This document shows, piece after piece, positions 1,777 through 26,816 of a DNA stretch of 64,000 nucleotides; positions within the stretch are counted from its first letter, which is position 1; every line of letters starts with the position of its first letter. The DNA comes from a bacterium. Its GTDB lineage: Bacteria > Verrucomicrobiota > Kiritimatiellia > SPBP01. The notes under the pieces are model-generated. The model saw only the letters and a program-made list of their open reading frames with translations, ran no database searches and was not told the origin of the DNA. The position numbers were made by a program, and so were the translations under genes. Location of the stretch: assembly GCA_037135275.1 (NCBI GenBank), contig JBAXKQ010000001.1, forward strand, positions 1,172-65,171, given 5' to 3'.

Positions 1777-1780
1777 GCCG

Positions 1781-2875
1781 TTAATCCCTGAAGAACATGC
1801 AGAGGCGCATGGACCAGTAGGCAATCAGCGCCGTCGCCGGAAGAGTGAGGACCCAGGCCCATACAATGCGGCCGACCACACCCCACTTGACGGCGCTGAG
1901 CCGCTTCGTGGCGCCAACTCCCATGATCGATGTCGAAATTACGTGGGTTGTCGACAGTGGTATCCCAAGCCGGCTGGCGGCAAAGATGATTGTCGCTGCG
2001 GTGGTCTCGGCGGCAAATCCGTGGATCGGCTGCAGGCGCACCATCTTGTGGCCAAGAGTCCTTATGATCCGCCAGCCTCCTGTCGCCGTCCCGGCGGCAA
2101 TAGTCAGCGCGCATATCACCTTAACCCAGTCTGCGACGGCAAACTCCGGCGTGTAAAGAAAGCCGAGCCACGAAGGCAGGTTGTCGAAGGTGCCGTCCTT
2201 GGTGGCGGTGAATAATACCAGCGCGACCACACCCATCGTTTTCTGCGCATCATTCGTGCCGTGGCTGAAAGCCATGCCGGCGGCGCTGACCAGTTGCAGT
2301 TTGCCGAACACCCGGTTGATCACCCGCGGCGTCACTTTCACAAGGCATACGGTGAGAAGGAGCATCAGCAGCAGTCCCACTGCGAAACCAAGCGCCGGCG
2401 ATGTGATCATCGGAACGACAACCTTGTGCCACAGCCCTTCCGCCTTGCCCGTGGTTTCGTTCACCACCGACCATCGGATGACGGACCATTTGCCGTTCGA
2501 AGAAGCAAACGCCGCCCCGCAAAGGCCGCCGATCAGCGCATGGCTTGAGCTGGATGGGAGCCCCAGCCACCATGTGGCTAGATTCCACACAATTGCGCCT
2601 ATCAGGGCACACAGGATCGTGTGAACTGTGATGTAACTGGTATCGACGAGCCCGGTTCCAATCGTGGTCGCAACCGAAACCCCCACCAGCGCGCCGAGGA
2701 GGTCGAAGACCGCAGCCATCAGCACTGCCTGCCTGGGGGTAAGGACCTTGGTCGAGACCACGGTCGCAATCGAGTTGGCCGAGTCATGAAACCCGTTGAT
2801 GTACTCGAACACCAACGCTGCGATTAGTATGAGGAGTATGAGACTCACAGTCCGACTTCCCCCTCCACGAAACAA
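1781..2875 (-). CDS. pitA: inorganic phosphate transporter, PiT family
   Basis: N-terminal FEYINGFHDSANSIATVVST and repeated GTNDAQKTMG motifs are PiT hallmarks. It is a polytopic membrane protein. Confidence 0.85.
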   Translation of the reverse strand: MFRGGGSRTVSLILLILIAALVFEYINGFHDSANSIATVVSTKVLTPRQAVLMAAVFDLLGALVGVSVATTIGTGLVDTSYITVHTILCALIGAIVWNLATWWLGLPSSSSHALIGGLCGAAFASSNGKWSVIRWSVVNETTGKAEGLWHKVVVPMITSPALGFAVGLLLMLLLTVCLVKVTPRVINRVFGKLQLVSAAGMAFSHGTNDAQKTMGVVALVLFTATKDGTFDNLPSWLGFLYTPEFAVADWVKVICALTIAAGTATGGWRIIRTLGHKMVRLQPIHGFAAETTAATIIFAASRLGIPLSTTHVISTSIMGVGATKRLSAVKWGVVGRIVWAWVLTLPATALIAYWSMRLCMFFRD

Positions 2876-3057
2876 GACAAACGGAGCGGCCCAGAAAACC
2901 AGAGATTGTCACATTAGCAGGTCCGGTCAGGGCAGGCCACCAGAAAACTCAGGCAGTATTCCATCACAACGACAATTTCCAGCATCTCATGGAACCGCAA
3001 AATTCCCTCAGGCATTTGCTTGCATCATAGCCGGCAAGAATGTAATAGACACCGCCA

Positions 3058-4491
3058 TTGGGAGCGACCGAGTATGCCTGCACGGCAGCTTCGCCCCCAC
3101 GGAGGCTCGGCAAAGTGCATACCAAGACAAGGGCGATCACAAAACTGATTCTAGAGGCAGCCAGCAAAGCACGGGATGAGACCGGCAACGAACCCGATTC
3201 GACCGTGGTGACTTCCGTGGAATGGCCTGTGCATTGCACGGTCGGACCTGGACTTGAAGGCGCAATAGCGTGTGCGACCAAAGTCGGCTACGTGAACGGG
3301 TCAAAGGGCGCCCTGTGCTACCGCGGTTACGACATATTCGACCTGTGCGCGTACTCAACGTTTGAAGAAGTGTGCTACCTCCTCATGAAGGGCAATCTCC
3401 CCACCGAGGCCCAGCTCAAGGAGTTCAAGCAGATCCTCATCGGATACCGGAGCGCTCCAGACACCCTGCGCCACCTGATGACTTTCCCCATCGAGGAAAT
3501 GTCGACCATGGGTGCGCTGCGGCTCGGGACCAACCTGATGCGCTACAAGCTTACCGAGCTCGAGCCTGAAACCGCCAAGGCCGAGGAGGGCCGATTCATC
3601 GGCTCAGACGAGGACTCCATCGCCATGGAAACCGTGCCGAAAGGCGAGGAGCACGCGATCTACGAATTCAACGGCGAGGAGATCTCGTCACGGATCGTCG
3701 AGGCCAGCTACCGCCTTATCGCCGGCCTCGCGTCTATCGGTGCTGCAATCGCCAGGATTCGCGGCGGCCACCTGCCGCTGGCACCAGACCCCAAGCTCAG
3801 CCACGCCGCCAACTTCCTCTACATGATGTCAGGCCGGCGCCCGACACCCGAGGAGGAGCGGATAATGGACGTCTGCCTCATCCTCCACGCCGACCATGGC
3901 ATGAATGCCAGCACTTTCGCCGCACTCGTGGTCGCCTCGACGCTTTCCGACATCTATTCGTCGGTGGGTGCCGGTATCGGCGCGTTGACTGGGCCCCTGC
4001 ACGGCGGCGCGAACGAGCAGGTCCTCAAGATGCTCAAGCAGATCGAGTCGCCCGCCAACGTGAAACCATGGTTCGAGAAGGCCCGCAGCCGGAAATCGCG
4101 CATCATGGGAATGGGGCACCGCGTCTACAAGGTCTACGATCCGCGCGCGCGGATACTCGGGCCACTAGCCAAGCATCTGTGCCGGCGCAATACCGACGCA
4201 TGGCGGCTCTACAAGACCGCTGTCGGCCTTGAGCGAGAGGTCATAACAAACCTCGGCAGGAAGGGGATCTTCCCGAACGTGGACTTCTACTCGGGAATGG
4301 TATACAGCGCTCTTAACATCCCAGACGCGATGTTCACGCCGATCTTCGCGGTGAGCCGCGTCTCAGGGTGGACCTCAAGGATCCTGGAATACCTCAGAAA
4401 TAACCGGATCTTCCGGCCCAGGGCCATGTACGGCGGCGCCGTGGGGCGGACGTATGTGCCCGTCCGCAAACGTGACGAACTCGCCAAGTAG
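3058..4491 (+). CDS. gltA: citrate synthase (true start probably internal, with a non-ATG start)
   Basis: Contains YRGYDI, LHADHG and GMGHRVYKVYDPRA motifs of type II citrate synthase. The first ~60 aa (Arg/Pro-rich) look like an over-extension of the ORF. Confidence 0.85.
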   Translation: MGATEYACTAASPPRRLGKVHTKTRAITKLILEAASKARDETGNEPDSTVVTSVEWPVHCTVGPGLEGAIACATKVGYVNGSKGALCYRGYDIFDLCAYSTFEEVCYLLMKGNLPTEAQLKEFKQILIGYRSAPDTLRHLMTFPIEEMSTMGALRLGTNLMRYKLTELEPETAKAEEGRFIGSDEDSIAMETVPKGEEHAIYEFNGEEISSRIVEASYRLIAGLASIGAAIARIRGGHLPLAPDPKLSHAANFLYMMSGRRPTPEEERIMDVCLILHADHGMNASTFAALVVASTLSDIYSSVGAGIGALTGPLHGGANEQVLKMLKQIESPANVKPWFEKARSRKSRIMGMGHRVYKVYDPRARILGPLAKHLCRRNTDAWRLYKTAVGLEREVITNLGRKGIFPNVDFYSGMVYSALNIPDAMFTPIFAVSRVSGWTSRILEYLRNNRIFRPRAMYGGAVGRTYVPVRKRDELAK

Positions 4492-5764: not shown

Positions 5765-6826
5765 TTGTCACACATTATGCGACTGTCCCCCAGTATTCTG
5801 GCTCTGATTATTGCCGTTGCAGCGACTTCCTCGCCAGCCGCGGACGCCGAAAAGCCTGCCGCTCCCTCAAAGGTGGAGAAGAAGCAGTCCAGCATGTTTT
5901 CGCGGCCAAAGAAACAAACGCCCGCAGAACAACTCGCCTATGCCGGCTCGCTCAAGAACGCCGGGAAGCGTTCTGAAGCGGCAAAGCAGTACAACACCCT
6001 CGTGCAACGGTGGCCCGATTCAACCCAGGCCTCTGTCGCACAACTTGAATACGCCCGCATCCTGGAGGCCGCCGGCGACTATGCCGCCGCCTTCGATGAA
6101 TATGAGTACCTTATCCAGTACTACCCTGGGCAGTTCCAGTATGCTGATGTGCTGGAGAGTGAGTTCCGCATCGCGAACGCCATAATGACGTCCCGCAGCA
6201 AAATCCTCGGTATTCTGCCGGGCTCCGCGGGCTATTCGACCGCACTCCCCCTGTTTGAGCGGGTTGTCATCAATGCCCCACAGTGGAGCGGCACACCAAA
6301 GGCGCAGTTCAATATCGGCTGGATACACGAAAATCTCGAGGCCTACGACCTGGCCGCCGACGCTTACGAACTGGTGCAGCAGAACTATCCACGAAGCGAA
6401 GTCGCGGCTGATGCCGCCTTCCAGCAGGGATACTGCCTCTACGTCATCGCAAAGACCCGTCCGAACGAGGAACGCGGTCTCCTTGCGGTGAGAGCACATT
6501 TCCAGAGATTCCTGCGCTCCTATCCCGATCATGCGGCGGCGGGCGACGCCGCCGGGTACCTTAACGACATCCTGCAACGGCTGACCAAAATGGCCTACGA
6601 ACGCGCGGTATTCTACGATAAGGGCAATCACGCCAAGGCCGCAGTCATCGCCTATAAGGATTTCATGAACAAGTTCCCCGACGCGCCGCAGGCGCGGATC
6701 GCCCAGCTCAGGATTGAAGAACTCGGCGACGAGGCCGGCACCGTGAAAACCCAACCCGAACCCGGGACGGACAGCGAACACAAGCACATCTCGGGCGGTA
6801 TTTCAGGTGATGACAATGACCGCTAG
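5765..6826 (+). CDS. secreted TPR-repeat protein (BamD/YbgF-like)
   Basis: It has a signal peptide (ILALIIAVAATSSPAADA) and TPR-like helical repeats rich in Tyr and Ala. There is no lipobox Cys, so the BamD assignment is tentative. Confidence 0.4.
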   Translation: MSHIMRLSPSILALIIAVAATSSPAADAEKPAAPSKVEKKQSSMFSRPKKQTPAEQLAYAGSLKNAGKRSEAAKQYNTLVQRWPDSTQASVAQLEYARILEAAGDYAAAFDEYEYLIQYYPGQFQYADVLESEFRIANAIMTSRSKILGILPGSAGYSTALPLFERVVINAPQWSGTPKAQFNIGWIHENLEAYDLAADAYELVQQNYPRSEVAADAAFQQGYCLYVIAKTRPNEERGLLAVRAHFQRFLRSYPDHAAAGDAAGYLNDILQRLTKMAYERAVFYDKGNHAKAAVIAYKDFMNKFPDAPQARIAQLRIEELGDEAGTVKTQPEPGTDSEHKHISGGISGDDNDR

Positions 6827-10949: not shown

Positions 10950-11026
10950 TGGTACCCCGGGCGCGACTTGAACGCGCGACCCCAGGATTAGGAATCCTGT
11001 GCTCTGTCCAACTGAGCTACCGGGGC
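10950..11026 (-). tRNA. tRNA-Arg (anticodon CCT)
   Basis: Reverse complement folds as a cloverleaf: GCCCCGG acceptor, GCTC/GAGC D-stem, anticodon loop TTCCTAA, GGTTCAAGTC-type T-arm, and encoded CCA. Confidence 0.85.
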
Positions 11027-11390
11027 AACGTTGACTGTCCGGCATCTCTGCAGCCCGGAATAACGTTCGCTGTGCCTGCAATTAGTATTCAAAGCCGGAC
11101 CAAAGTCGAGACTTTTCGCTCGCAAGTGCAATCTTTCATCTCCCGCCGGGACCACCACACCCATGCGCTGGACCGGCTATCGCCGTTGCTTCCAGCCCAA
11201 AACCAGCCACGACCCTCGCTTTGCTATGCGGCCATTGCCCACCAATGCTGTGTTTTGCCTTGTATCGACTCTCGCTTCTGTCGTATATGGAGCGGCCATT
11301 GGGTGACAGGCATCGCCCCCGCACAGGCAATTGGAGCGATGACACACCCTGGCCTGCGGGACCTTCATCGGCCCCGCTATCCGCAGCATT

Positions 11391-11466
11391 GCCAGCTTAG
11401 CTCAGTTGGTAGAGCAGCTGATTTGTAATCAGCAGGTCTCCGGTTCGAGCCCGGAAGCTGGCTCCA
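11391..11466 (+). tRNA. tRNA-Thr (anticodon TGT)
   Basis: GCCAGCT acceptor, GCTCAGTTGGTAGAGC D-arm, anticodon loop TTTGTAA, GGTTCGAGCCCGG T-arm, and encoded CCA. Confidence 0.85.
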
Positions 11467-11677
11467 CTTTCGCCTTTTGAACCAACGGCGGCGCAGCCCC
11501 TCAACATCCCTCAGCCCAGGAGATGGGTGTCCCCATCAGGACCGTTTGATGACCCGTTGCCTTTCCTGATCCTTGTCAAAAGCGATAATGTATGCAACGC
11601 TTCCCCCCTGTTGATGCTGAGAGCATGTTACTCTGGAAGAATGAACGCGACCGGAAAGGCGGGAGAGAACGACCACA

Positions 11678-13276
11678 ATGAAGGCGACTCACCTAACGTC
11701 ACACTGGCAGCTCTTCCTGGACGATTCCCTGATTGAACGCGCGACCGGCTTCGACCAGCGGATACGCCAGCCGCGCAAGCACGGCATCCTGTTTCCCGAC
11801 CGCCAACCTTGGGAACACGGCATCGGCATGTTCCAGCCCGTCTACGATGACGGCCGGTTCCACGCCATCTACCGCGTCAACTGGCTGGATCCGGAAATCG
11901 AGGCCTTTCATGCCTCGCAGGGCTGGAAGGGGGACCCCGCGGACCTCGGCGCGGCCACCGAGTGGGCGTATGCGACCAGCTCGGACGGCATCCACTGGGA
12001 GCGGCCGGCCCTGCTATTGTGCGAGACACCCGTGTTCCGGGACGGCAAGATCAGCGGCAGGACCCGCGAGAACAACTGCGGCGTACCGTTCGACTTCATC
12101 CGCGACCTGGGGCGCGACGGCAACGTCACCGATCCAGCGCGACGGTTCTTGTTGCGGACGCGGACTGGCCAGGGAACACCCGCGGGCCGATCCCACCACG
12201 CGCAGGCCCGGAACCCCGGCGGGCTCTACTTTGCCGCGGAGTTTCCGGACTTCGTCCATGATCCCGACTGGCAGCGGAAGCTGATGCCGATAAACGGCCG
12301 GATGTCTCCGCGCGGCTTCGGCAACTTCACCGGCTGGGACGATCTCAACGGGGAATGGATCGCGTTCATGCAGGGCACGGCGCCCCGGTGGTTTCCCGCG
12401 CGCGACATCGCCAGGCATTGGTCGAAGGATTTCAAGACGTGGGAGTCGCGAGGCGTGCTGTATCCCGACGCCCTCGATCCGCACACCCTGGAGCACTACG
12501 ACGAGTTCATGGAGATCCAGGTGATCCGCAAGGGCGACCTCTGGCTCGGCTTCATGGCAGTGTTCCACTCCGACCGCACCAGCCCGGACTACATGCCGCC
12601 GTTCATCGAGAAAGAGAACTTCCGTTTCGCCTACGACTTGCCGAACTACTGCACACGGAAAGGCACGACCGACCTCCGACTGGTCACCAGCCGCGACGGC
12701 GGGCACACCTGGAACCGCGTCGCCAACCGACAGGCCTGGCTCCCGCACGGCGCGAATGATGACGACTTCGACCGGTGCGCCTACACGGGCACCCCGATCA
12801 CAGTCGGTGAGACGGACCATTTCTACTACATGGCCAAGAACGGCGACCATCTGGAGAGCCTGCATGACCGGACGCCCTACTACAAGGACCGGACCACGGG
12901 GTGGAACGCGGCACTGGCCTCCTACCCGCGCGACCGCTACGTGAGCATATCCACGGGCACGTATCCGGCCATCCTCTACACCCGTCCCATGCTCCTGCCG
13001 CCCGGAGGCCTGCGGCTCAACGCCGATGCCTCGCACGGCGAGATCCGCGTTGAGATCGCCGCCGCACCCGCCGGGGGCATCGACGACATCCACTCCGCAC
13101 CCGTGGAGGAGGGTTTCTCGTTCCATGACTGCACGCCGGTCCAGGGCAACGGGGTGGAACAGCCAGTGCGGTGGCGGCGCCGGCCGGACACCGCCGCCTT
13201 GCAGGGCCATCCCGTGCGCTTGCGGTTCTACGTGAGAAATGCGGATCTGTACGGCTTCCGAATCGAAGCCTCCTGA
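11678..13276 (+). CDS. BNR/Asp-box repeat β-propeller protein, glycoside hydrolase-like, cytoplasmic (no signal peptide)
   Basis: Asp-box motifs SSDGIHWERP and SRDGGHTWNRV. It is Trp-rich with a C-terminal β-sandwich ending VRLRFYVRNADLYGFRI. It is a paralogue of the next gene. Confidence 0.55.
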   Translation: MKATHLTSHWQLFLDDSLIERATGFDQRIRQPRKHGILFPDRQPWEHGIGMFQPVYDDGRFHAIYRVNWLDPEIEAFHASQGWKGDPADLGAATEWAYATSSDGIHWERPALLLCETPVFRDGKISGRTRENNCGVPFDFIRDLGRDGNVTDPARRFLLRTRTGQGTPAGRSHHAQARNPGGLYFAAEFPDFVHDPDWQRKLMPINGRMSPRGFGNFTGWDDLNGEWIAFMQGTAPRWFPARDIARHWSKDFKTWESRGVLYPDALDPHTLEHYDEFMEIQVIRKGDLWLGFMAVFHSDRTSPDYMPPFIEKENFRFAYDLPNYCTRKGTTDLRLVTSRDGGHTWNRVANRQAWLPHGANDDDFDRCAYTGTPITVGETDHFYYMAKNGDHLESLHDRTPYYKDRTTGWNAALASYPRDRYVSISTGTYPAILYTRPMLLPPGGLRLNADASHGEIRVEIAAAPAGGIDDIHSAPVEEGFSFHDCTPVQGNGVEQPVRWRRRPDTAALQGHPVRLRFYVRNADLYGFRIEAS

Positions 13277-13507
13277 GGCTGGACACTTCGGAAAGGAAAT
13301 CACATATACCACTGACTGACGCGGAAATGCTGCAACTCAAGCGCTGGAACACGCCCACGATCTACAATGGCTGGGAGCAGATCACCTCCGGAACACCGCG
13401 CAACCGGGTCGATGGCGGCGCAAGCGCAGGCAATTGTGCGGCGGGAAGACCTCTGTCGGCATAGACGTGGAGCGAACCCTTCGCGGTGTCACAAACTGGA
13501 GCATCGA

Positions 13508-14944
13508 ATGAACAACACTCGCCTGTTGATTGAGCCGGGATTGATTGAGGAGATGAAGTTGCTCGAGCCGGTCGTGGGCACGGTGGCCAAGGCCGCAGAG
13601 AATCCGCTGCTGCGGGAGGACGTTCCCTGGGAGCCACGCTGGGACGACATGAAACCGAGCGTGTGGCATGACCCCGCAACCGGCCGCACGCATCTCTGGT
13701 ACACCCCCTTTATCCACGACTCGCTCACATCCGACGTCGGCAGCGAGCCCTGGAACGTGCCTGCCTGGCCGCCCGCGCGGGAGTATCATGTGATCACGCC
13801 GGGGCAATACCGGGAGTTCGCCTTGTGCTACGCGTATTCCGACGACGGCATTCACTGGACCCGGCCATGCCTGAACCGTGTCGAGTACATGGGCAGCAGC
13901 CGGAACAACATCCTGCTGCGCGATCCGGACCGCCATCCGACCTCGTGGATGCGCGGCGTGATCGGCTGCGGCATCCGGCATGACGACCGCGAAACCGATC
14001 CGGCCCGCCGTTTCAAGATGATCGGCGCCGCCCCGCACGGCGGGGGCGAGATGGGGGTTGCCGTCAGCTACTCCGCCGATGGGCTTTCCTGGGAGCTTCC
14101 GCACCGGGTCCTGCCGCCGGAAGCCTGGAACGATGGCAGAATCGGCTGGGGCGACACGCTTAACGCATGGCTTCATGCCCCGGACCTGGGCCGCTACGTC
14201 GCCTTCACGCAATCATGGAGCTCCGGCGAAGGGCGCCGCCGTCTCAAGCTCCGCATGGAGAGCGAGGACTTCGAGCACTGGACGAATCCGGAAGTGACCA
14301 CCTACAGCCCCGACGTAGAAGTTCACACGCATGTGCCGTTCCGCTACGGGAACCTGTACCTGGCTCTCCTGCACACTGTGACGACACCGGACGGCTGGGG
14401 CGATGGGACGGTGGACGTGGAACTCGGTGTGAGCACAGACACAAGAACCTGGACCCGGTTTGCACCCGGGCGCTGCCTGATTCCTCGCGGCGCCCCCGGG
14501 TCAATGGACAGCGGTTGCATCTTCAGCGCCCTGGCACCGGTGGTCGTAGGTGATGAGATCCGCCTGTACTATTGCGGAAACGACGGCACCATCCGCGGCT
14601 GGCGCCGGGGCTTCTGGTGCCTGGCAACCCTGCCCCGCGACCGTTGGGGCGGCTACACCCGCCTGCCGCTCGATCCCGCTGGCGAATTGGTCACCCGGCC
14701 GGTCGTGTATCCCGGCGGGGAGCTGCACGTGAACGTCGACGCCGCATGCGGCTCACTCACCGTCGAGGCACTCGGCACGGATGGCGGCGTGCTCGCCACC
14801 AGCGCCAGCCTGACCGGCAACCACTTCGCGCAGCCGATTCGCTGGGAAACCGGCGGCCTGGCCGGGCGGACCGGGCAGCCGATACGCTTACGATTCCGGC
14901 TGCGCGGCGCCACACTGTATGCCTTTTCTTGTGGCACAGAGTGA
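13508..14944 (+). CDS. BNR/Asp-box repeat β-propeller protein, paralogue of the preceding gene
   Basis: Asp-box motifs YSDDGIHWTRP, YSADGLSWELP and VSTDTRTWTRF. The C-terminus IRLRFRLRGATLYAFS parallels the upstream paralogue. The start is set at the internal ATG (MNNTRLL) after the Arg-rich ORF extension. Confidence 0.55.
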   Translation: MNNTRLLIEPGLIEEMKLLEPVVGTVAKAAENPLLREDVPWEPRWDDMKPSVWHDPATGRTHLWYTPFIHDSLTSDVGSEPWNVPAWPPAREYHVITPGQYREFALCYAYSDDGIHWTRPCLNRVEYMGSSRNNILLRDPDRHPTSWMRGVIGCGIRHDDRETDPARRFKMIGAAPHGGGEMGVAVSYSADGLSWELPHRVLPPEAWNDGRIGWGDTLNAWLHAPDLGRYVAFTQSWSSGEGRRRLKLRMESEDFEHWTNPEVTTYSPDVEVHTHVPFRYGNLYLALLHTVTTPDGWGDGTVDVELGVSTDTRTWTRFAPGRCLIPRGAPGSMDSGCIFSALAPVVVGDEIRLYYCGNDGTIRGWRRGFWCLATLPRDRWGGYTRLPLDPAGELVTRPVVYPGGELHVNVDAACGSLTVEALGTDGGVLATSASLTGNHFAQPIRWETGGLAGRTGQPIRLRFRLRGATLYAFSCGTE

Positions 14945-14970
14945 CGTGAATTGTGGCCCGACAGCCTCAT

Positions 14971-15001
14971 GTGACAGCAACGGCATGTAGCTGCGAGCGG
15001 C
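14971..15001. repeat. 31-bp intergenic repeat, copy 1 (GTGACAGCAACGGCATGTAGCTGCGAGCGGC)
   Basis: 26/31 identical to 43135–43165. Both copies sit 27–30 bp downstream of a plus-strand stop codon. Confidence 0.4.
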
Positions 15002-15426
15002 AGCAGATGGCAGGCCGCTGGCTGGCGGCTGCCGTGCTGGGGCGGCTCGATGCAGTTGACGGTGAAGTTGACGCTGAGGCCAGGAGCGATTGAGTTCGCG
15101 AGGCAGTTGGCGATGGATGCGTAGCCACTGGAAGGTCACGTGCACAGCCAAGGATCCGCAGGAGCCTGGCTGTCCTCATCCCGGCCACCCAGCCCACTCC
15201 GTCCACCCAGTCCACTTCCACACCATCCACCGCTTCGCCCGCCCCACATGCTGCGACAGGTCAGATTGTTGCAGAAATGCTGGCCGATAGGAGGTATGTC
15301 CCCGCGGGGGGGCAGTGCGGCGGGCGGGGCGCCTCCGGGGCACAACAAGGGAATTGCCACGGCCACCCGTCCGTGTTATCGGTGAGACCCATGGCACGTA
15401 TACCGTGCCGCGGCCTGGGACATCGC

Positions 15427-16764
15427 ATGACCAAGATGAAGATCCTATCGATACCGTTGGTGGCGCTGATGATGCTCTCTGGCGCGCTTTTCATTCCTGC
15501 GCGCGCCTGGTGCGCCGCCCCGGGCCGTGGTCCGATCACCGCCAACGACGACATGGGTGCTGCTATCCCTGCGCTTGATCCGGTTGTGATCGCCTATTTC
15601 TACCAGCCTGGGTGCAGGGAATGCCTGATCGTGTCAAATGAGGTCCTGCCGGAACTCGAGGCGCGATGCGAGGGCTTCTATCAGCTCAGGTACTTCGACA
15701 CCGGCGTCAAGTCGAACTACCTTCTCCTGGCGGCATACCAGGTCCAGCTCGACGTGAAGGGGGATGAAGCCGTCTGTATGATCGTCAATGGACGGATCGC
15801 ACTGAATGGCTTGAAGGCCATCAAAACCCGGCTGATCACCACGATCGAGGAATGCGTCCAGCAACAACTCGCCGGCCCGCCGGTACACAAGTTGCCGATT
15901 GTCACCCCGCCGGCAGGAGCAGGAAGCCCGGCGCTTCTGGCGGATCGAATGAGGACATTCACCCTTCCGGCCGTACTGGGCAGCGGCTTGATCGATGGCC
16001 TGAATCCATGCGCCATTTCGACCCTGGTGTTCTTTATGAGCCTGCTGGCGGTAGCTAGGGTCCGGGCACGTGGGCTGCTCATAATGGGGTTGGCTTTCGG
16101 CACCGGGACATTCCTCACCTACACAGCACTCGGGTTCGGTCTCCTGCGGACGCTGCGCTTTCTCACCGGCTTCGAGTGGCTGCGCCTCGCCGTGGAAGCG
16201 GGCATGGTGTCGGCGCTCGTGATACTGGCATGCCTGTCGTTCAGGGACGCGTACCGCTTCAAGAGGAGCGGCAATCCGTCCGATGTACTCCTCCGAATTC
16301 CGGACGGCATGAGGACCAGCATGCACCGGGTAATGCGCCTCGGGCTGGCTGGCCCGGGGCTGGCGATTGGCGGATTCCTGGCTGGCTCGGCCGTGACTGC
16401 CCTGGAGAGCGTATGCACCGGTCAGCTCTATATCCCGACGCTGACTCTCATCATTGAGGACAGCGGCACCAGCCCGGAGCTCACTGCCAGGGCGTGGGTG
16501 TACCTGCTGCTCTACAACATCATGTTCATCGTGCCGCTCGCGGCCGTCTTCGTGGCAACGTACCTCGGCCTTGGCACCGGTTCGCTACTGCGGTGGAGTA
16601 AGCGCAATGTGGTTACGGCCAAGATCATGCTCGGGATGCTATTTGTGGTGCTCGCCATTCTGCTGACCCTGCTGTATGCAGGCGGCAGGACAGTTGTGCG
16701 GGACGCCCGGCCGAAGGCCGATGCGAACGACTCATCAGTGCCGGGGGTACGTCACCTGCCATAG
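15427..16764 (+). CDS. thiol:disulfide interchange protein, DsbD/CcdA family, with N-terminal periplasmic thioredoxin-like domain
   Basis: It has a signal peptide, a thioredoxin-like CxxC (YQPGCRECL), and a membrane core with GLNPCAISTLVFFMSL plus a second Cys at ESVCTGQLYIP (CcdA/DsbD β-domain motifs). Confidence 0.7.
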   Translation: MTKMKILSIPLVALMMLSGALFIPARAWCAAPGRGPITANDDMGAAIPALDPVVIAYFYQPGCRECLIVSNEVLPELEARCEGFYQLRYFDTGVKSNYLLLAAYQVQLDVKGDEAVCMIVNGRIALNGLKAIKTRLITTIEECVQQQLAGPPVHKLPIVTPPAGAGSPALLADRMRTFTLPAVLGSGLIDGLNPCAISTLVFFMSLLAVARVRARGLLIMGLAFGTGTFLTYTALGFGLLRTLRFLTGFEWLRLAVEAGMVSALVILACLSFRDAYRFKRSGNPSDVLLRIPDGMRTSMHRVMRLGLAGPGLAIGGFLAGSAVTALESVCTGQLYIPTLTLIIEDSGTSPELTARAWVYLLLYNIMFIVPLAAVFVATYLGLGTGSLLRWSKRNVVTAKIMLGMLFVVLAILLTLLYAGGRTVVRDARPKADANDSSVPGVRHLP

Positions 16765-17484
16765 GAAGAGCCCCTGTGGCGGTGCGGTAGGAACCCTGGC
16801 AGTCCGTTCCCGGGAGTGCAGAATGACTCTTGCGCCTTCAGGCGGAACAGCGCCCTCGCCTACCCGGATCAGGAAGCCCGCGAGACTCCTCACCATCTTG
16901 TACAGAAAGCCGTCGGCTGTCGCCGAAATGACAATCTCCGAACCCCGCCGCGTGACCGAAAGCCGGCTCAGGTGACGCACCGTGGTTTCGACAAAGCGAT
17001 TGGGATTGGCCGTGAACGCGGCGAAGTCGTGCTTACCCTCGAGGAGCCTCGCGGCCCTGGCCATGGCCGCAACGTCGAGAGGATCCCTGATCTGTGTCCT
17101 GTAGAGCCGCAGGAACGGGGGCACCACCGGCCCGTTCCAGATGAAGTAGCGGTATTCCTTCCTGATCGCACTGCGCCTGGCGTCGAAATCGCTCCTCACG
17201 CGCCTGACCTGATCAACCCTGATATCGGGCGGCAACACCGCATTGAGCCCCTTGCGGAGGGCGGTCACAACGTCGCCGTCCCTTTCAAGGTCCACGTGCA
17301 CGACCTGCCTGCGGGCGTGTACGCCCTGGTCGGTACGGCCGCTGCCGTGGGCTATGACCTTCTCGGTGGTAACTCGGAAGATGGCATCCTGAAGCGTTGC
17401 CTGCACAGTGGAATGGCCCGGCTGAATCTGCCAGCCGGCGTACGCCGAACCGTCGTATCCCAGAACTATCTTGTATCGGGTCAC
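16735..17484 (-). CDS. truA: tRNA pseudouridine(38–40) synthase
   Basis: YDGSAYAGWQIQP and GRTDQGVHARRQV catalytic-Asp motifs. Confidence 0.9.
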   Translation of the reverse strand: MTRYKIVLGYDGSAYAGWQIQPGHSTVQATLQDAIFRVTTEKVIAHGSGRTDQGVHARRQVVHVDLERDGDVVTALRKGLNAVLPPDIRVDQVRRVRSDFDARRSAIRKEYRYFIWNGPVVPPFLRLYRTQIRDPLDVAAMARAARLLEGKHDFAAFTANPNRFVETTVRHLSRLSVTRRGSEIVISATADGFLYKMVRSLAGFLIRVGEGAVPPEGARVILHSRERTARVPTAPPQGLFLWQVTYPRH

Positions 17485-17492
17485 CCGGGCCC

Positions 17493-17921
17493 TCAGGCAG
17501 GATTGGCGTTGTTGGTACGATCGAGGTATCCCTGCAGAATCACCTGGGCGGCGAGCTGGTCGCGCACATTCTTGCGCTTCTCCCTCCTGGTGTCGGCCTG
17601 CACCAGCATCCGCTCGACCATGGCCGTGCTCAGCCGCTCATCCCACATCTCGACACGCAAACCTGTTGCAGCGCGCAGGGTATCCGCAAACTCGGTCACA
17701 CCCTTGACGGCGAAGCCGGACGTGCCATCCATGTTCAACGGCAGGCCAAGGACAATCCACGCGACCTGCTTCTCGACGCATGTCGCCTTGATGGCAAGGA
17801 CAGCCTTTTCAGGGTTGCCGACTACAACAGTGCCGAGGGGCATGGCTATGATGCCAGTCTCGTCGCTCAGGGCGAGGCCGATCCGGCGTGTACCGTAGTC
17901 TATTCCAAGCAGGCGCGGCAT
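17493..17921 (-). CDS. ruvX: Holliday-junction resolvase-like nuclease YqgF/RuvX
   Basis: LLGIDYGTRRIGLALSD RNase H-like motif, 142 aa. Confidence 0.9.
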   Translation of the reverse strand: MPRLLGIDYGTRRIGLALSDETGIIAMPLGTVVVGNPEKAVLAIKATCVEKQVAWIVLGLPLNMDGTSGFAVKGVTEFADTLRAATGLRVEMWDERLSTAMVERMLVQADTRREKRKNVRDQLAAQVILQGYLDRTNNANPA

Positions 17922-17924
17922 TGT

Positions 17925-19007
17925 CTAGAGCAACTCCCGGTAGGTGTCTGCCTCACGCAGCAGTTTCACAAGCTTCTTGACGTCCTCCGCCCTGTCCTTG
18001 CGGCAGACCAGCGTCGCGCCGGGCGCCTGGACAACGATGAGGTCACTCACCCCGATCAGGCCGGTAAGCCTGTCGCCCGCCACAACGATATTCCCGCCAC
18101 TGTCGACACATTCGCCGCAGCCGATCCTGATGTTCCCGTCCTTGTCCTGCTTGAAGTGGTGCTCAAGCGAAGCCCAGGTCCCGACATCGTCCCAGGCGAA
18201 ATCGCACCTGGCGACCAGTATGTTCCCGGCCTTCTCCATCACCGCGTAATCGATCGATATCTTTTGCAGCCTGCCGTACTCCCTTGCAAGCGCCCCCTGA
18301 AACTTGCCGGTACCGGCCAGCGGTTCAAGCCTGCGCGCCATCTCGAACAACCCAGGGGTATAATGCTTCAGGGCATTCTGGATCGCATCAACGGTCCATA
18401 CAAACATGCCCGAGTTCCAGAAATACCTGCCCGTCGCCAGATACTTCCGCGCGGTCTTCAGGTCCGGCTTCTCGACAAACCGCACAGTGCGGAACAGCTT
18501 CAGGCTGCCGCCGGTGGCAACCTGCCTGCCGGCCTCTATGTAACCATACCCGGTGGCAGGCCTGTCAGGCGCGACGCCAATAGTGACCAGCACCTCATCA
18601 CGCGCGGCAGCATCCATGCAGTACTTGAGCGTCTTCCGGAACTTGGAAGCCGGGCTGATGAGTTGATCCGCCGTCAGCACGGCAAAGACGCCATCCGGTG
18701 AGCGGCTGCGGACAAGGGCCGACGCCAGTGCAATTGCCGCCGCAGTGTCCCGCCCTACCGGCTCACCCACGATATTTCCAGCCGGAATCGACCTGAGGCA
18801 CTTGCGGATGCCCGGCACAAGATCCGCCGTTGTGATGACAAGTGTATTCTCGGGCTTGATCAGTCCGCGAAGCCGCTCGGCAGCCATCGCTATGAGCGCT
18901 TTGCCGCCGACAAGAGACAGCATCTGTTTGGGCCTGGCTGTTGTGCTGAGCGGCCAGAACCTCTCACCGCGGCCACCCGCCATTATCACGGCAAACGCGT
19001 TCTTCAT
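17925..19007 (-). CDS. mannose-1-phosphate guanylyltransferase family (sugar-phosphate nucleotidyltransferase)
   Basis: AVIMAGGRGERFWPLS NTP-transferase P-loop. It is 360 aa with no PMI domain. Confidence 0.75.
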   Translation of the reverse strand: MKNAFAVIMAGGRGERFWPLSTTARPKQMLSLVGGKALIAMAAERLRGLIKPENTLVITTADLVPGIRKCLRSIPAGNIVGEPVGRDTAAAIALASALVRSRSPDGVFAVLTADQLISPASKFRKTLKYCMDAAARDEVLVTIGVAPDRPATGYGYIEAGRQVATGGSLKLFRTVRFVEKPDLKTARKYLATGRYFWNSGMFVWTVDAIQNALKHYTPGLFEMARRLEPLAGTGKFQGALAREYGRLQKISIDYAVMEKAGNILVARCDFAWDDVGTWASLEHHFKQDKDGNIRIGCGECVDSGGNIVVAGDRLTGLIGVSDLIVVQAPGATLVCRKDRAEDVKKLVKLLREADTYRELL

Positions 19008-19789
19008 TGTTTTCTCCGGTCTGTCTTTTCCGACCCGCAGTTAAGCTCGTAAATCCGCCACAAGCCGCGAAGGGTGAGGTCGGGATCAATGACAAACGGC
19101 ATTCCGAGTCCGCGCAGCACCTTCCTGGCGTACCCACCCGTTGCGCAGAGCCTGACCCCATGCTTCCCCGTGGTCTTCAGCAGGTGTCCCGTCAGCTCGC
19201 GCACGAGGCCGCGATAACCCACGACAACGCCAATACGCATGGCGCCGGCTGTGCTCTTCCCTATGCCGCCGCAAGTGCCGCCGGCGCGGATCCTTGGCAG
19301 CAGCGCGGTCTTCTCCGCGAGGCACTCGCCGATGATCGCCGGTCCCGGTGCAATGACGCCGCCGAGAAACTCGCGGTCGCCGGAGACCACATCAAGCGTC
19401 GTTGCAGTGCCGACATCGACCACGATGGCCGGCACGCCGTGGTGCCACGCCGCGCCGCAGGCGTCGGCCAGCCTGTCCGCACCGATCGTCCCCGGCCTCG
19501 GGTAACGGAGCTTCAGGCCGAGGTTCACGCGGTGTGAAACTGTGATAACATTTTTCCCGACCAGCCGCCGGAGTTCACGCAGCCAGGGGGCGTTCACCCG
19601 CGGCACCACTGAGCAGAAGACTGCCGCGGTTGTGCTCCGCCTCCCCACCAGGCGCTCGAGGCTTTTCCGGATCGCGGCGGGTTTGCACGACGCCGTCGGC
19701 AGGCGGCCCCGGCGCGCAATACGGCCGTCGGCTGAGAGCCCCAGTTTCACCGATGTATTCCCTGCATCGACGAGTATGACGAAGCTCAT
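19004..19789 (-). CDS. coaX: type III pantothenate kinase
   Basis: ILVDAGNTSVKLGL and ASKHA-fold motifs (VVDVGTATT). There is a 4-nt overlap with the upstream gene. Confidence 0.9.
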   Translation of the reverse strand: MSFVILVDAGNTSVKLGLSADGRIARRGRLPTASCKPAAIRKSLERLVGRRSTTAAVFCSVVPRVNAPWLRELRRLVGKNVITVSHRVNLGLKLRYPRPGTIGADRLADACGAAWHHGVPAIVVDVGTATTLDVVSGDREFLGGVIAPGPAIIGECLAEKTALLPRIRAGGTCGGIGKSTAGAMRIGVVVGYRGLVRELTGHLLKTTGKHGVRLCATGGYARKVLRGLGMPFVIDPDLTLRGLWRIYELNCGSEKTDRRKQ

Positions 19790-19791
19790 CC

Positions 19792-20649
19792 CTAGAACTC
19801 CAGTGAAAGATCAGCGGCCGGCGCCGAATGCGTCAGGCATCCGAGGGAGATGGCATCCACACCGGTGCGGGCGACCGCGTCGATGTTGGCGGCCGTGATG
19901 CCGCCCGACGCCTCGAGGCGGCTTCTCCCGGCGCAAAGCTTCACGCAACGCCGCATCGTGGCAGGCTTCATGTTGTCCAGCAGGATCCAGTCCGGCCGGC
20001 CCGCCAGGGCACTGACGAGTTCCTTCTCGTCTTCCACTTCTATCTCGATTTCGAGCCCTGGTGAATTCTTCCTGGCGGCTTTCACTGCGGCGCCGAGGTC
20101 GCCGGCATGGGCGCGGTTCCACAGTATGCGATGGTTGTCCTTGATAAGGACCTTGTCGTAGAGCCCCATCCTGTGGTTAGTGCCCCCGCCGCAGAGAACG
20201 GCGTACTTCTCCAGCACACGGAGCCCGGGAGTGGTCTTGCGGGTATCCAGGATCTTTACGCCGAAGCACCTGGCCCGTGCGACAAAGCCGGCGGTCATGG
20301 TGGCAATGCCGGTCATCCTCTGCATGAAGTTGAGGGCCGTCCGCTCCGCTGTGAGGATCGAGGCCGCTGGTCCGCGTATGGTCATGATCACATCACCGGC
20401 CCGAACCTGCCTGCTGTCACCGGCAAGGATCCTTACCCTGAGGCGCCCGTCAACCTGCAGGCAGACAGTCCGAGCCACAGTGCTGCCGCTGACCACGTAG
20501 TTACCCCTTGAGACTATCGAGGCGGAAGCCACCGCGTCGGCAGGCACGAGGGATGCGGTTGTCGCGTCACCGCCACCGACATCCTCCTCGAGGGCGCGCC
20601 GCACAAGGGTTTGTACTTCAGCACTATCAGCTATTACGGGCAATCGCAT
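19792..20649 (-). CDS. nadC: nicotinate-nucleotide (quinolinate) pyrophosphorylase
   Basis: The C-terminal 286 aa of the 420-aa ORF match NadC (LDTRKTTPGLR, LLDNM, GGIT). The upstream 135 aa are Arg/Ser-rich with no homology, so the start is placed at the internal ATG at 20649. Confidence 0.8.
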   Translation of the reverse strand: MRLPVIADSAEVQTLVRRALEEDVGGGDATTASLVPADAVASASIVSRGNYVVSGSTVARTVCLQVDGRLRVRILAGDSRQVRAGDVIMTIRGPAASILTAERTALNFMQRMTGIATMTAGFVARARCFGVKILDTRKTTPGLRVLEKYAVLCGGGTNHRMGLYDKVLIKDNHRILWNRAHAGDLGAAVKAARKNSPGLEIEIEVEDEKELVSALAGRPDWILLDNMKPATMRRCVKLCAGRSRLEASGGITAANIDAVARTGVDAISLGCLTHSAPAADLSLEF

Positions 20650-20659
20650 AAGACAAGCC

Positions 20660-21844
20660 CTACTTGGTACTCCACCGGCAAGGCATGAAGCAGCCTTCAA
20701 AGGATTTATCGGCCGTGACATGTATCTGGTGAGTGTTTTCGAGCCTGAAGTAGTTAGTCTTGTGATCCGCCGAATGAACCGAGAACGAAAGCAGGTACGT
20801 GCCACGCGACATCCCCAGCGGCTCGATCCGGAACGCGATCTCGCCCTTTCCGTCGATCCGCGGCAGATCACATTTCTCGATCTGCGTATTGTTGCCGTAG
20901 ACAACGTGTCCGTTGATGTCCGCAACAGCGAATCCGAAAACCGGCTCCGGAACGGGGTGTTTCGCCGTGTACCGGATCCTGGCGACGAGGGGGCCGCCGC
21001 ACCTGAACTGGTCTGTTCCGACGCCGTCACCGGCATCAAGCACAACCTCGTCAATGATCACTTCCTGGGTGCCCCACACTCTCTTCGCACTTGCCGCCTG
21101 CTTGCGACGGATGAATTCCTGGTACTCCTCCACCATCCCGGACGGTGTGCCGATTCCGTGCACGGTCCCGTTCTCCAGGAAGAGGAGGCGGTCGCTGACG
21201 GATGTGATCGTGGGCAGATCGTGGGAGATAATGATCATCGTCTTGCCGGCCGTCCGGTACTCCTTCATGCGGTCGAGGCACTTCCTTTGGAACGTGGCAT
21301 CGCCCACGGCCAGCACCTCGTCTATCAGCAGGATGTCCGGGTCCACCTCAACGGCCACCGCGAAACCCAGCCTCACGTACATACCGGATGAGTAGTGCTT
21401 GACCGGTTCGTCAATCCACTTGCCGAGTTCGGAGAACTCGACAATGGTATCGAAGCGCCTGGTCATCTGCTTGCGGGTCAGGCCCATGATCGCGCCGTAC
21501 AGGAAGACATTCTCGCGGCCGGTCAGTTCCGGGTGGAACCCGGCGCCGAGCTCCAGAAGCGAGGAGATAGTGCCGGTCGCGCTGATCGTTCCGGTCGTTG
21601 GCGGCATTGTCCCGCTGATAAGCGCCATCAGGGTGCTCTTGCCGGCGCCGTTGGCCCCGATGATTCCCAGCGTTTCTCCCCGCTTGACGGTGAAACACAC
21701 ATCCTTGAGCGCCCAGAACTCGCTGGCTGGCCGGCGACGGCCGCGGACGAAGTCCAGCGCGGTAGCCTTCAGGGTCCGGGAAGCGTGATGCTTCAGCCGG
21801 AACCGTTTGCCGACACCCTGCACAGTTATGACAGCGTCATTCAT
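20660..21844 (-). CDS. polysaccharide/O-antigen ABC exporter ATP-binding protein (Wzt/KpsT/TagH-like) with C-terminal substrate-binding β-domain
   Basis: Walker A GANGAGKST, signature YSSGMYVRLGFA, Walker B ILLIDEVLAVGD, plus a ~150-aa C-terminal extension typical of Wzt. Confidence 0.8.
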   Translation of the reverse strand: MNDAVITVQGVGKRFRLKHHASRTLKATALDFVRGRRRPASEFWALKDVCFTVKRGETLGIIGANGAGKSTLMALISGTMPPTTGTISATGTISSLLELGAGFHPELTGRENVFLYGAIMGLTRKQMTRRFDTIVEFSELGKWIDEPVKHYSSGMYVRLGFAVAVEVDPDILLIDEVLAVGDATFQRKCLDRMKEYRTAGKTMIIISHDLPTITSVSDRLLFLENGTVHGIGTPSGMVEEYQEFIRRKQAASAKRVWGTQEVIIDEVVLDAGDGVGTDQFRCGGPLVARIRYTAKHPVPEPVFGFAVADINGHVVYGNNTQIEKCDLPRIDGKGEIAFRIEPLGMSRGTYLLSFSVHSADHKTNYFRLENTHQIHVTADKSFEGCFMPCRWSTK

Positions 21845-21846
21845 CT

Positions 21847-22644
21847 CTAGAACTCGTCAACAAACCGTTTTTCTATCTTCTGGAAGAAGGCGATACCCGC
21901 AATGCAGACCAGCCACGCCACACCAAACGACATCAACGTCAGCCTTGGGGCAATGATGTCGGCCCCGAGTATTGCCGTCCTGTACGCCGTGACAATGCCG
22001 GTCATCGGATTCAGGAACGCGAGCCGCTGGTACATCACCGGTATCATTTCGAGGTAGTAGATGACTGGCGTGAGGAAGAACCACGCAAGCAGGATGACGC
22101 CAACCACATGCTCGGTGTCGCGAAAGAACACGTTCAACGCCGACAGAATGAGACCAAGTCCGAGGCACAGCGCAAAATGCGTTAGGATGACCGCCGGCAA
22201 CAGCCACAGGTGATGGAAATGCACGGGTGCGAATCCACCCACTTTTAGGAACGCCGCATAGCCGAAGAGGATGACAAGCGAGAACAGGAAGTTGACGAGG
22301 TTGGCTATGCTCATTGACATAGGCAGGATTATCCGGGGAAAGACGCTCCGGGCGACCAGGTTGGAGTTGCCAAGGATGCTGTTGAGCGAGTCGTTCAGGC
22401 ACATCGAGAGGAACTGCCAGGTAATAACACCAGTGACCAGCATCGGCAGGAAGAGCAGGTCATCGGCACGGTAGCACTTGAGGATCTTGAGAAAGATCGC
22501 GTATATGAGGATGAAGAAGAGCGGATTAAGCAGGCTCCAGAAGAATCCCAGAACGGACCTCTTGTACCGGATCTTCAGGTTGCGTCCCACCATGATTCCA
22601 AGCAAATCACGATGGGTGTTCAAATCTTTGAGCAGTTTCCACAT
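21847..22644 (-). CDS. ABC-2 type polysaccharide exporter permease (Wzm/KpsM/TagG-like)
   Basis: It has six TM segments and the ABC-2 family pattern. The start is placed at the internal Met (MWKLLKDL); the upstream ORF part is Pro/Arg-rich junk. Confidence 0.75.
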   Translation of the reverse strand: MWKLLKDLNTHRDLLGIMVGRNLKIRYKRSVLGFFWSLLNPLFFILIYAIFLKILKCYRADDLLFLPMLVTGVITWQFLSMCLNDSLNSILGNSNLVARSVFPRIILPMSMSIANLVNFLFSLVILFGYAAFLKVGGFAPVHFHHLWLLPAVILTHFALCLGLGLILSALNVFFRDTEHVVGVILLAWFFLTPVIYYLEMIPVMYQRLAFLNPMTGIVTAYRTAILGADIIAPRLTLMSFGVAWLVCIAGIAFFQKIEKRFVDEF

Positions 22645-23031
22645 GGCCCGCCGATTATCATTTATCGGGAGCGACCTCGTCAATGCCCATTTGCACGAGT
22701 GGACGGCCGCCGGAGGCCGTCGCCGACACGACTCCGGGGCGGCCCGCCCCGGCATCGCGGAGCCCGGCGGAGGCCAGCACTTCCACCGCCGCCATGAGGG
22801 CCAGCAAGGTCGTGCGCCTATGCCCGGCGCCGGCCGGAACGGAAGCGAGACCGCACAAGTCACGGTCCGACAGCTTGATTTCACAGCAGGAGATGGAATC
22901 GCGATGCGCCGTTTCGAGGACTTCAAGCCTGCCGTAGCCGCATCTTCGCTCAAGGAGGGCCGCGTAGTTCTCCGGACTGTTTCTACCGATGGCGGTAATT
23001 ATACCCTAACCGGTTATGAAAACACGCCGCC

Positions 23032-23298
23032 TCATTTTGTCCGGTTGGCGTAGACGTACTGGGCAATGGTGCGGACATTGACGAGTATCTTCCGGGCCAC
23101 CTTCGAGTCCTCTATCCTCGCGCCGTAATGTTTCTCGAGCATTACGATCAGTTCCAGCGCATCCACCGAGTCAAGGCCGACACCTTCGCCGAAAAGCGGT
23201 ATGTCAGCGTCGAGTTTCTCCGGCGTCATGCCTACCATGTTCAGGCGGGCAATGATTTGCGTCTTGAGTTGAGGAATAAGCTCTTCAATTGTCTGCAT
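23032..23298 (-). CDS. acyl carrier protein
   Basis: GLDSVDALELIVMLE phosphopantetheine-attachment Ser motif, ~88 aa. Confidence 0.8.
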   Translation of the reverse strand: MQTIEELIPQLKTQIIARLNMVGMTPEKLDADIPLFGEGVGLDSVDALELIVMLEKHYGARIEDSKVARKILVNVRTIAQYVYANRTK

Positions 23299-23312
23299 TA
23301 TCGGCACCCCGG

Positions 23313-26346: not shown

Positions 26347-26816
26347 TCATCTCCGTCGCGTCGCGGATCTTCGCGTGTGGGCACGGCTGCCTGTTTCCAC
26401 GGAACGGCAAGCACCGCCTCGGTCAGCGTCACCAGTTCACCCACGGGAACGTCGAACACCTCTGCATACTTCCCAAGCGTGACGCTGTCCAGATTGCGGA
26501 AAGCCTCCGGATCAAGGTGCACCCTGATCTTCCGCTTCGGAATGCCGGTATATGCGGAGAGAAGCGCCACGTCGAACATGCTCCGGGCCATGTAGAAGGC
26601 CAGTGGACTGGCTTTGCCCTCCTTTACCGACAGATAGGCCGCCTTCACATCTTCGTTGATCTGCTCCCATGCCTGCAGCAATGCGGCATTCTTGGGCCCC
26701 CAGCCGCAACTGAGAACCTTGACATAGTTGCCCTTTTCGTCGACGGCATAGCAGAGTTCGCGTGTCCGCCCTTCCATCAGATTGTCGTCGTCCTGGGGAA
26801 CTTGTTCTTGCTTCAT
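26343..26816 (-). CDS. hypothetical protein (157 aa) embedded in the ACP/KAS-III cluster
   Basis: It is tightly coupled (4-nt overlaps) to both neighbours. I recognise no motif. Confidence 0.45.
   Translation of the reverse strand: MKQEQVPQDDDNLMEGRTRELCYAVDEKGNYVKVLSCGWGPKNAALLQAWEQINEDVKAAYLSVKEGKASPLAFYMARSMFDVALLSAYTGIPKRKIRVHLDPEAFRNLDSVTLGKYAEVFDVPVGELVTLTEAVLAVPWKQAAVPTREDPRRDGDE

Follow-up and report, generated by a model that had tools for sequence, protein, structure and literature searches.

Here, we analysed a 64,000-nucleotide stretch of DNA (hereafter, the window) from a bacterium of the Kiritimatiellia (Verrucomicrobiota; lineage SPBP01), which corresponds to positions 1,172 to 65,171 of contig JBAXKQ010000001.1 in assembly GCA_037135275.1. 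Our subject is a pair of adjacent genes, open reading frames (ORFs) A and B, that follow two divergent tRNA genes. The interpretation that we consider probable is that A and B are diverged paralogues of a large, uncurated enzyme family distantly related to the glycoside hydrolase/phosphorylase family GH130, and that they constitute a reduced gene cassette located at a lineage-specific junction in the chromosome, with no involvement of integration into a tRNA gene. In the cytoplasm, where both proteins work, their most likely task is the cleavage or other processing of imported small glycans or glycosides, both the activity and the substrate class being predictions. In its fuller form the cassette has the order A'–RraA (class II pyruvate-aldolase-like)–D-2-hydroxyacid dehydrogenase–B', and the window copy has lost the middle part. 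Together with the tRNA-Thr gene and a membrane-protein gene, the reduced cassette fills the junction between two conserved housekeeping blocks, having probably arrived there by duplication, translocation or transfer and not by site-specific integration into a tRNA gene.

The two genes are as follows.

11678-13276, plus strand: ORF A, 532 aa, a signal-less five-bladed β-propeller (residues ~10-417) with a C-terminal β-sandwich (~420-532), here called A-type (from the ORF and the AlphaFold2 model)
13508-14944, plus strand: ORF B, 478 aa, a signal-less five-bladed β-propeller with a C-terminal β-sandwich (~381-478), the B-type paralogue of A (from the ORF and the AlphaFold2 model)

The longest reading of ORF B starts at 13367 and would encode 525 aa. 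This start was rejected; the NCBI gene call starts at 13508, close homologues begin at the methionine at 13508, and the region 13306-13386 is a remnant of another gene (RraA, described below), so the true start is 13508. The paralogy of A and B proposed in a preliminary description of this DNA was confirmed: the proteins are 28% identical in BLASTP (E = 8e-22), and the A-type and B-type subfamily profiles align over 441 columns with an hhalign probability of 100% (E = 1e-90). The absence of a secretion signal was also confirmed, because neither protein has a hydrophobic N-terminal segment and their N-termini begin only 3-9 residues ahead of the first conserved strand. A and B thus lack export signals and therefore work in the cytoplasm. 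Three Asp-box-like motifs are present in A (S101, S249 and S338), of which only S338 fits the strict form SxDxGxTW, and four, all of relaxed form, are present in B (S111, S189, S252 and S309). These motifs are conserved columns in both the A-type and the B-type alignments, and a rough estimate from amino-acid frequencies, not computed, would put the chance expectation below 0.1 motif per protein. The Asp-box repeats noted earlier are thus real as motifs, but most are relaxed and they do not indicate a BNR fold, as the structural models made clear.

AlphaFold2 models built with family alignments reached a pLDDT of 92.8 and a pTM of 0.92 for A, and 92.1 and 0.93, respectively, for B. Both models consist of five four-stranded blades followed by a β-sandwich, and the matching C-terminal tails of the preliminary description are recognizable in both. 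As modelled, A and B are five-bladed GH130-like proteins with a C-terminal β-sandwich in the style of GH32/GH43. The fold neighbours of both models are GH130, GH137, GH43/62 and a GalNAc deacetylase. In the structure comparison of B, the highest scores were obtained with the deacetylase (26.3), GH137 (25.2) and GH130 (23.2-25.2), accompanied by GH159, GH43, GH62 and GH117, whereas sialidases scored at most 17.5. The top Foldseek match of A is a GH130 β-1,2-mannobiose phosphorylase (E = 3e-10), and the family profiles match the GH130 β-1,2-mannobiose phosphorylase 7fip with E-values of 3.7e-10 (A profile) and 9.4e-7 (B profile). Profile matches to sialidases are restricted to single Asp-box turns. 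Neither protein matches Pfam BNR (PF02012) or BNR_2 (PF13088) at E<=1, nor the Pfam models Glyco_hydro_130, GH32 or GH43; among Pfam and NCBIfam there is no usable match, and the sole trace is 13.3 bits to the GH130 model NF052550. Therefore, a sialidase-type, six-bladed BNR identity was ruled out: the models have the five blades of GH130 and not the six of GH33, no BNR or BNR_2 match exists, and fold scores to sialidases are low. The earlier label of 'BNR-repeat β-propeller' was correct as to the motif but assigned the proteins to the wrong fold family. No characterised family gave an alignment in which the catalytic residues are intact, the outcome that the preliminary description had named as evidence against it; A and B lie outside every curated model that was tried.

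The family is very large. A profile search against 1.84 billion cluster representatives (clusters at 50% identity) yielded 19,909 matches at E<=1e-3, 11,109 at E<=1e-10 and 3,851 at E<=1e-30, and the named sources of its members are metagenome-assembled genomes (MAGs) of Chloroflexi, Planctomycetes, Latescibacterota, Hydrogenedentes, Acidobacteria, Verrucomicrobia and Bacteroidota. Some members are fused to an alginate lyase domain, BNR_2 domains or FG-GAP repeats. The loci of homologues contain Opp-type and sugar ABC importers, SSF and MFS transporters and LacI and GntR regulators, along with sulfatases, LamG proteins, pectate-lyase-like β-helix proteins and NANM, and also HpcH/HpaI aldolase, GFO/IDH/MocA oxidoreductase, DUF4838, DUF5696/DUF6259 and DUF5107 proteins. 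Judged by their annotated gene content, these neighbourhoods are a signature of glycan-utilisation loci. Of the two substrates suggested earlier for A and B, an imported oligosaccharide is plausible from these neighbourhoods. Groups of two or three adjacent family members were seen at five of the eight independent loci compared, a recurrence which suggests that A and B may form a heteromer. Examples of such tandem or clustered paralogues occur on Planctomycete-like, Caldilineaceae and other contigs (L157/L158 8216-13328, L160 3619-10941 and L159 7938-11761), where they adjoin genes for HpcH/HpaI aldolase, SSF/MFS transporters, sulfatases and NANM. Two distant members approach the GH32_N model: P0087 remains below the threshold (16.7 bits vs 22.1), and P0252 exceeds it as a whole protein (25.7 vs 22.1), with no single stretch passing alone. 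The precomputed annotation of P0087, P0106, P0133, P0144-P0146 and others lists PF22847.3, but hmmscan against Pfam returned no such match even at E<=1, and no mention of PF22847 was found in a literature search.

A candidate catalytic residue can be proposed from the comparison with GH130, whose 'EDPR' motif contains an invariant Asp, the sole candidate for the general acid (Cuskin et al. 2015, PMC4599007). In the alignment of the B profile to GH130, the segment 'VEDPRI' is placed opposite 'fkDer', and the aligned Asp is D159 of B, a residue without variation in the B alignment. Among A-type proteins, an Asp is conserved at position 143 ('IRD-L', 45 of 48 sequences), at the end of the same β-strand. 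We pair A D143 with B D159 because of the shared 'IR(H)D' strand end and the DSSP register, and the Asp that closes strand 1 of blade 2 may take the role of the GH130 general acid. The residues common to both subfamilies (A/B) are E46/E42, D152/D164, R156/R168, D191, R242/R245, E276/E271, R347/R317, D365/D334 and Y383/Y354, including three invariant or near-invariant arginines in each (R156, R242 and R347 in A; R168, R245 and R317 in B).

The distribution of export signals in the family bears on the type of reaction. Among the members sampled, 17 of 48 A-type and 20 of 61 B-type proteins are signal-less, and the other 31 and 41 carry Sec or twin-arginine signals. The preliminary description regarded cytoplasmic proteins of this kind as unusual, with sialidases in mind. 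This consideration does not apply to A and B, which are unlike sialidases; in the nearest fold family, GH130, the phosphorylases reside in the cytoplasm (PMC4599007), and signal-less members are common in the family itself. No alignment column switches residue between the 37 signal-less and the 72 signal-bearing members. In GH130, by contrast, the basic residues with which the cytoplasmic phosphorylases bind phosphate are replaced in the secreted hydrolases (PMC4599007). Because no such switch is seen, we lean towards the same phosphate-independent chemistry in both compartments, hydrolysis rather than phosphorolysis, although this alignment pattern is indirect evidence.

The competing possibility is that A and B are cytoplasmic glycoside phosphorylases, which would use inorganic phosphate to cleave an imported di- or oligosaccharide with release of a sugar 1-phosphate. 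Their best sequence and Foldseek matches are indeed GH130 phosphorylases, they lack signals as those cytoplasmic enzymes do, and the conserved arginines could bind phosphate. However, the many Sec- or TAT-exported members, in which phosphorolysis is unexpected, conserve these residues just as well, and the arginines could equally bind the carboxylate or sulfate of an acidic sugar. In addition, the alignments to GH130 are unreliable in blades 3-5, so that neither the three basic phosphate-binding positions of the phosphorylases nor the Glu pair found in their place in the hydrolases is mappable. We therefore regard phosphorolysis as unlikely, though it keeps a small share of the probability.

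A further proposal is tentative and has only a small chance of being correct as a whole: A and B may belong to an undescribed carbohydrate-active family (at least ~4,000 clusters from Planctomycetota, Verrucomicrobiota/Kiritimatiellia, Chloroflexota, Acidobacteriota and others) that acts, with RraA aldolase and D-2-hydroxyacid dehydrogenase as partners, on an acidic sugar such as a 3-deoxy-2-ulosonic or uronic acid. Release or transformation of an acidic sugar would fit the cluster of invariant arginines, the fusions to true sialidase domains and the repeated occurrence together with HpcH/RraA aldolases, sulfatases and NANM. If this is true, the acidic sugar would then be broken down by the aldolase/dehydrogenase pair, which would represent a new catabolic route.

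It is rather improbable that A and B are carbohydrate deacetylases or other non-glycosidases built on the same scaffold, as in the GalNAc deacetylase of F. plautii, or non-catalytic binders. The deacetylase is the highest-scoring fold neighbour of B, but it is only 14% identical in sequence and is a deacetylase with a carbohydrate-binding module.

The reduced state of the cassette was revealed by the 231-bp gap between A and B, which contains the following feature.

13306-13386, plus strand: remnant of an RraA-like aldolase gene, the 5' end of ~27 codons (81 bp), identified by nucleotide identity to the homologous loci L162 and L001

This remnant is 89% identical in nucleotide sequence to positions 1576-1656 of L162 and 85% identical to positions 5908-6002 of L001. 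Its start codon has changed from ATG to ATA, and the similarity ends abruptly after the remnant. L162 is contig SESE01005880.1 of the same assembly as the window's own contig, and it carries an intact four-gene cassette in the order A' (83% amino acid identity), RraA-like (274 aa, PF03737), D-2-hydroxyacid dehydrogenase (334 aa, 2-Hacid_dh) and B' (85%), with the middle genes at 1498-3330. Because the window retains 81 bp of RraA where L162 has the intact cassette, the window copy has lost ~1.7 kb from its middle. A third version, in L001, has the order A (81%)–RraA–B (81%), and its RraA gene (5923-6663) has an in-frame TAA stop codon. In the NCBI MAG, A and B are recorded as WCL44_00085 and WCL44_00090, and relatives of A (83%), RraA and B (80%) are present there too; all three are listed with a longest contig of 7,467 bp and presumably lie on one contig. 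In the public assembly, the second cassette copy is on a 4.4-kb contig of its own. The RraA-like proteins form a clade with 72-85% identity across >100 clusters, and they are paired with the dehydrogenase elsewhere as well.

These findings raise the question of whether the window copy is a decaying relic that became redundant after loss of the aldolase and dehydrogenase and is turning into a pseudogene without present function. The internal deletion, the mutated RraA start codon, the intact paralogous cassette in the same assembly or MAG and the lack of carbohydrate genes nearby in the window would all be in line with decay. Nevertheless, both ORFs are of full length and retain all family-invariant residues, their Shine-Dalgarno-like sequences are intact, and the pairwise dN/dS values among the three cassette versions (0.13-0.19) indicate purifying selection. 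Single A-type or B-type genes without partners also exist in other genomes (L003 and L006). We give decay a low probability.

The position of the cassette was examined by comparison with related MAGs (Kiritimatiellae, Verrucomicrobiota, Victivallales and Lentisphaerae). The features that delimit the region are listed below.

10950-11026, minus strand: tRNA-Arg(CCT) (ARAGORN; Rfam RF00005, 66.3 bits)
11391-11466, plus strand: tRNA-Thr(TGT), with encoded CCA (ARAGORN; Rfam, 69.9 bits)
15427-16764, plus strand: membrane protein of 431-445 aa (431 aa in the NCBI call), converging on TruA
16735-17484, minus strand: TruA, the first gene of the conserved ManC-RuvX-TruA block and the right edge of the junction (Pfam annotation; block comparison)
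29855-30217, minus strand: small lipoprotein gene (BLASTP, 44% identity and E = 6e-38 to its homologue in L009)

The closest relative according to NadD is L009 (MAG ELA441; NadD 74% identical), which has the same membrane protein–sigE–antisigma–RsfS–NadD–tRNA-Arg(CCT) block; in the window, this block ends with tRNA-Arg, which is on the NadD strand and upstream of that gene. The genes on the far side of tRNA-Arg in L009 encode a small lipoprotein, a nitrilase, an ABC-2 exporter set and a DEAD-box helicase, and this second block is collinear with 29855-39374 of the window at 61-84% amino acid identity (44% for the lipoprotein). The distance from tRNA-Arg to the lipoprotein gene is 138 bp in L009 versus 18.8 kb (11027-29854) in the window, the latter being mostly housekeeping DNA and containing TruA, RuvX, ManC, CoaX, NadC, a Wzm/Wzt-type ABC transporter, ACP, a BtrH_N/DUF4872 protein, a KAS III-like protein and NT5C. 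On the other side, the ManC–RuvX–TruA block was found in ~50 related metagenome loci, and in none of them do the membrane-protein gene, B or A come next to TruA on this side; in L078, the closest according to TruA (80% identical), TruA is followed by a transketolase. No tRNA-Thr gene is present near NadD or TruA in the relatives. The synteny that the preliminary description had named as evidence against an island was thus not seen in the nearest relatives compared, L009 and L078, which lack the segment at this position. By this comparison, the stretch 11391-16764, with tRNA-Thr, A, B and the membrane-protein gene, is a lineage-specific junction that separates two conserved blocks. Because the 18.8 kb include TruA, RuvX, CoaX and NadC, which are unexpected on a mobile element, we interpret the region as a chromosomal rearrangement junction and not as a tRNA-targeted island, the segment probably being accessory DNA that was moved or duplicated at a rearrangement breakpoint. 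A public contig matching the window, SESE01000056.1 (L002), begins at ~10760 inside NadD, just to the left of the tRNA pair, which indicates that an earlier assembly broke here.

The preliminary description pointed to the tRNA genes as a possible integration site, and tRNA-Thr could in principle have received, at its 3' end, a mobile element carrying A and B. The nearest relatives lack the segment here, and its composition deviates: the GC content of A and B (0.655-0.661) is above that of their neighbours, and their GC3 values (0.86 and 0.81) exceed those of 13 other genes in the window (0.65-0.78). Thus, absence from L009 and L078 does coincide with raised GC3, but these relatives are distant and the neighbourhood is rearranged. 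The three cassette versions are also ~80% identical to each other in unrelated contexts. Against this, no integrase, recombinase or other mobility gene was found between 11467 and 16764, where A, B and the membrane protein are the only supported ORFs (the same holds for 11.4-16.8 kb). Even with three mismatches allowed, the 64 kb contain only one copy of the 25-nt 3' end of tRNA-Thr, leaving no att repeat, and there are no flanking repeats around the segment. Moreover, tRNA-Thr itself lies within the non-conserved DNA, none of the eight loci with homologues of A or B has a tRNA gene, the DNA homology to the cassette copies in L001 and L162 stops at the coding regions, and the difference from L009 spans 18.8 kb with essential genes. 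A tRNA-targeted island is consequently very improbable.

Several points weigh against our interpretation of A and B as GH130-related enzymes at a rearrangement junction. The window copy has lost both metabolic partners, so its role may be reduced or redundant with that of the intact copy, and there is no transporter, regulator or other carbohydrate gene near it. The sequence similarity to GH130 is partial, the 13.3 bits to NF052550 comparing with a cut-off of 450, and the enzymatic activity of the family members is something we infer. Since hhalign places B D159 opposite the variable position 147 of A, the equivalence of D143 and D159 is insecure. The synteny comparison comprises two relatives with ~75-80% protein identity. 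Finally, novelty was judged by Pfam/NCBIfam coverage, and the family may already have a CAZy number.

The tRNA genes themselves were reproduced by ARAGORN and Rfam exactly as described earlier, divergent and with 364 bp between them, and they are the only RNA families detected in the window by these tools. Two non-coding stretches are of relevance here.

11027-11390, no strand: spacer of 364 bp between the divergent tRNA genes (bounds from ARAGORN/Rfam)
14945-15426, no strand: non-coding stretch of 482 bp after ORF B, with an 18-nt tandem repeat in two copies at 15181-15216

The spacer had been regarded as unusually long, but because the second stretch is longer still, its length is unexceptional for the window. 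Nor was the conserved structure for which a check had been proposed detected: Rfam searches of the spacer at the gathering threshold and at E<=10 returned only tRNAs and noise, and its folding is no better than that of shuffled sequences on either strand (z = -0.02 on the plus and -0.85 on the minus strand). A promoter and terminator scan found no sigma-70 consensus site, and the sole terminator-like call is a tRNA arm. Apart from the identical contig L002, none of the 161 loci compared shows similarity to it. We read the spacer as ordinary intergenic DNA, most simply a double promoter region that presumably carries the promoters of both tRNA genes; it is also one edge of the synteny breakpoint. 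The tRNA pair and the spacer are therefore ordinary and without importance of their own.

In the 482-bp stretch at 14945-15426, we found no supported gene, no Rfam match at the gathering threshold and no similarity to other loci. The membrane protein encoded next to it (15427-16764) has an N-terminal signal-like segment, a CxxC ('CREC') motif, a multi-pass C-terminal part and an 'NPC' motif, the motifs having been read by eye. Its layout resembles a thioredoxin-like domain joined to a CcdA/DsbD-like one, although Pfam and NCBIfam give no match, and none of 80 related loci has the gene downstream of TruA. Farther downstream, the plus-strand gene at 47000-49063 encodes a fusion of nucleotidyltransferase and APH-type kinase domains (687 aa), followed by a 563-aa ORF without a Pfam match (48972-50663). 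Genes for type II secretion or type IV pili (T2SSF and two T2SSE ATPases), a sigma-54 activator and a PAS protein occupy 50784-59268, and the lowest GC content of the window (0.535-0.541) was found at 51-54 kb.

The most useful results of this analysis are the reassignment of the fold, the size of the uncurated family, the cut-down cassette and the map of the synteny breakpoint. The family has thousands of members and is common in the glycan-utilisation loci of PVC bacteria, Planctomycetes and Chloroflexi; it lies outside Pfam, NCBIfam and the solved structures, and its members are mislabelled as 'hypothetical' or 'sialidase family'. Characterization of one member would annotate thousands of genes and could uncover a new specificity directed at sulfated or acidic glycans. 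For experiments, the intact four-gene cassette is preferable to the reduced copy in the window.

Comparison with known systems places A and B among several propeller enzymes without identifying them with any. The F. plautii GalNAc deacetylase (6n1a/6n1b) differs as described above, and the GH137 β-L-arabinofuranosidase domain of BT_0996 (5mt2) has ~15% identity, no match at the sequence level and no such C-terminal β-sandwich. GH33 sialidases, which are six-bladed, share the SxDxGxxW Asp-box-like turns, and some members of the A/B family are fused to true BNR_2 domains; a further resemblance is one of name, the paralogue P0122 being called a 'sialidase family protein' by NCBI. The GH32/GH43 enzymes (invertases, sucrose-6-phosphate hydrolases and β-xylosidases) combine a propeller with a C-terminal β-sandwich, have many intracellular members and give weak profile matches (E = 7e-4 to 2e-3), but A and B do not match their Pfam models, the two-domain TM-scores are low (0.27-0.32) and the catalytic triads are not mappable. 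GH130, represented by Teth514_1789 (7fip), Teth514_1788 (9fj8), UhgbMP (4udg) and BT3780 (5a7v), differs in that the identity is 12-19% and its curated models are unmatched, A and B have 100-200 more residues, their loops contain large insertions and their additional C-terminal β-sandwich has no counterpart in GH130, B-type proteins lack the Arg of the 'YR' motif, and the A/B family shows no residue switch between cytoplasmic and exported members. Even so, GH130 provides the best profile and Foldseek matches and shares with the A/B family the five-bladed β-propeller, the blade-1 pattern 'PWE … YR … AYA(T/V)S.DG..W' and the presence of both cytoplasmic and exported members; an Asp at the end of blade-2 strand 1, which aligns with the 'EDPR' Asp in the B profile, is a candidate for a further common feature.

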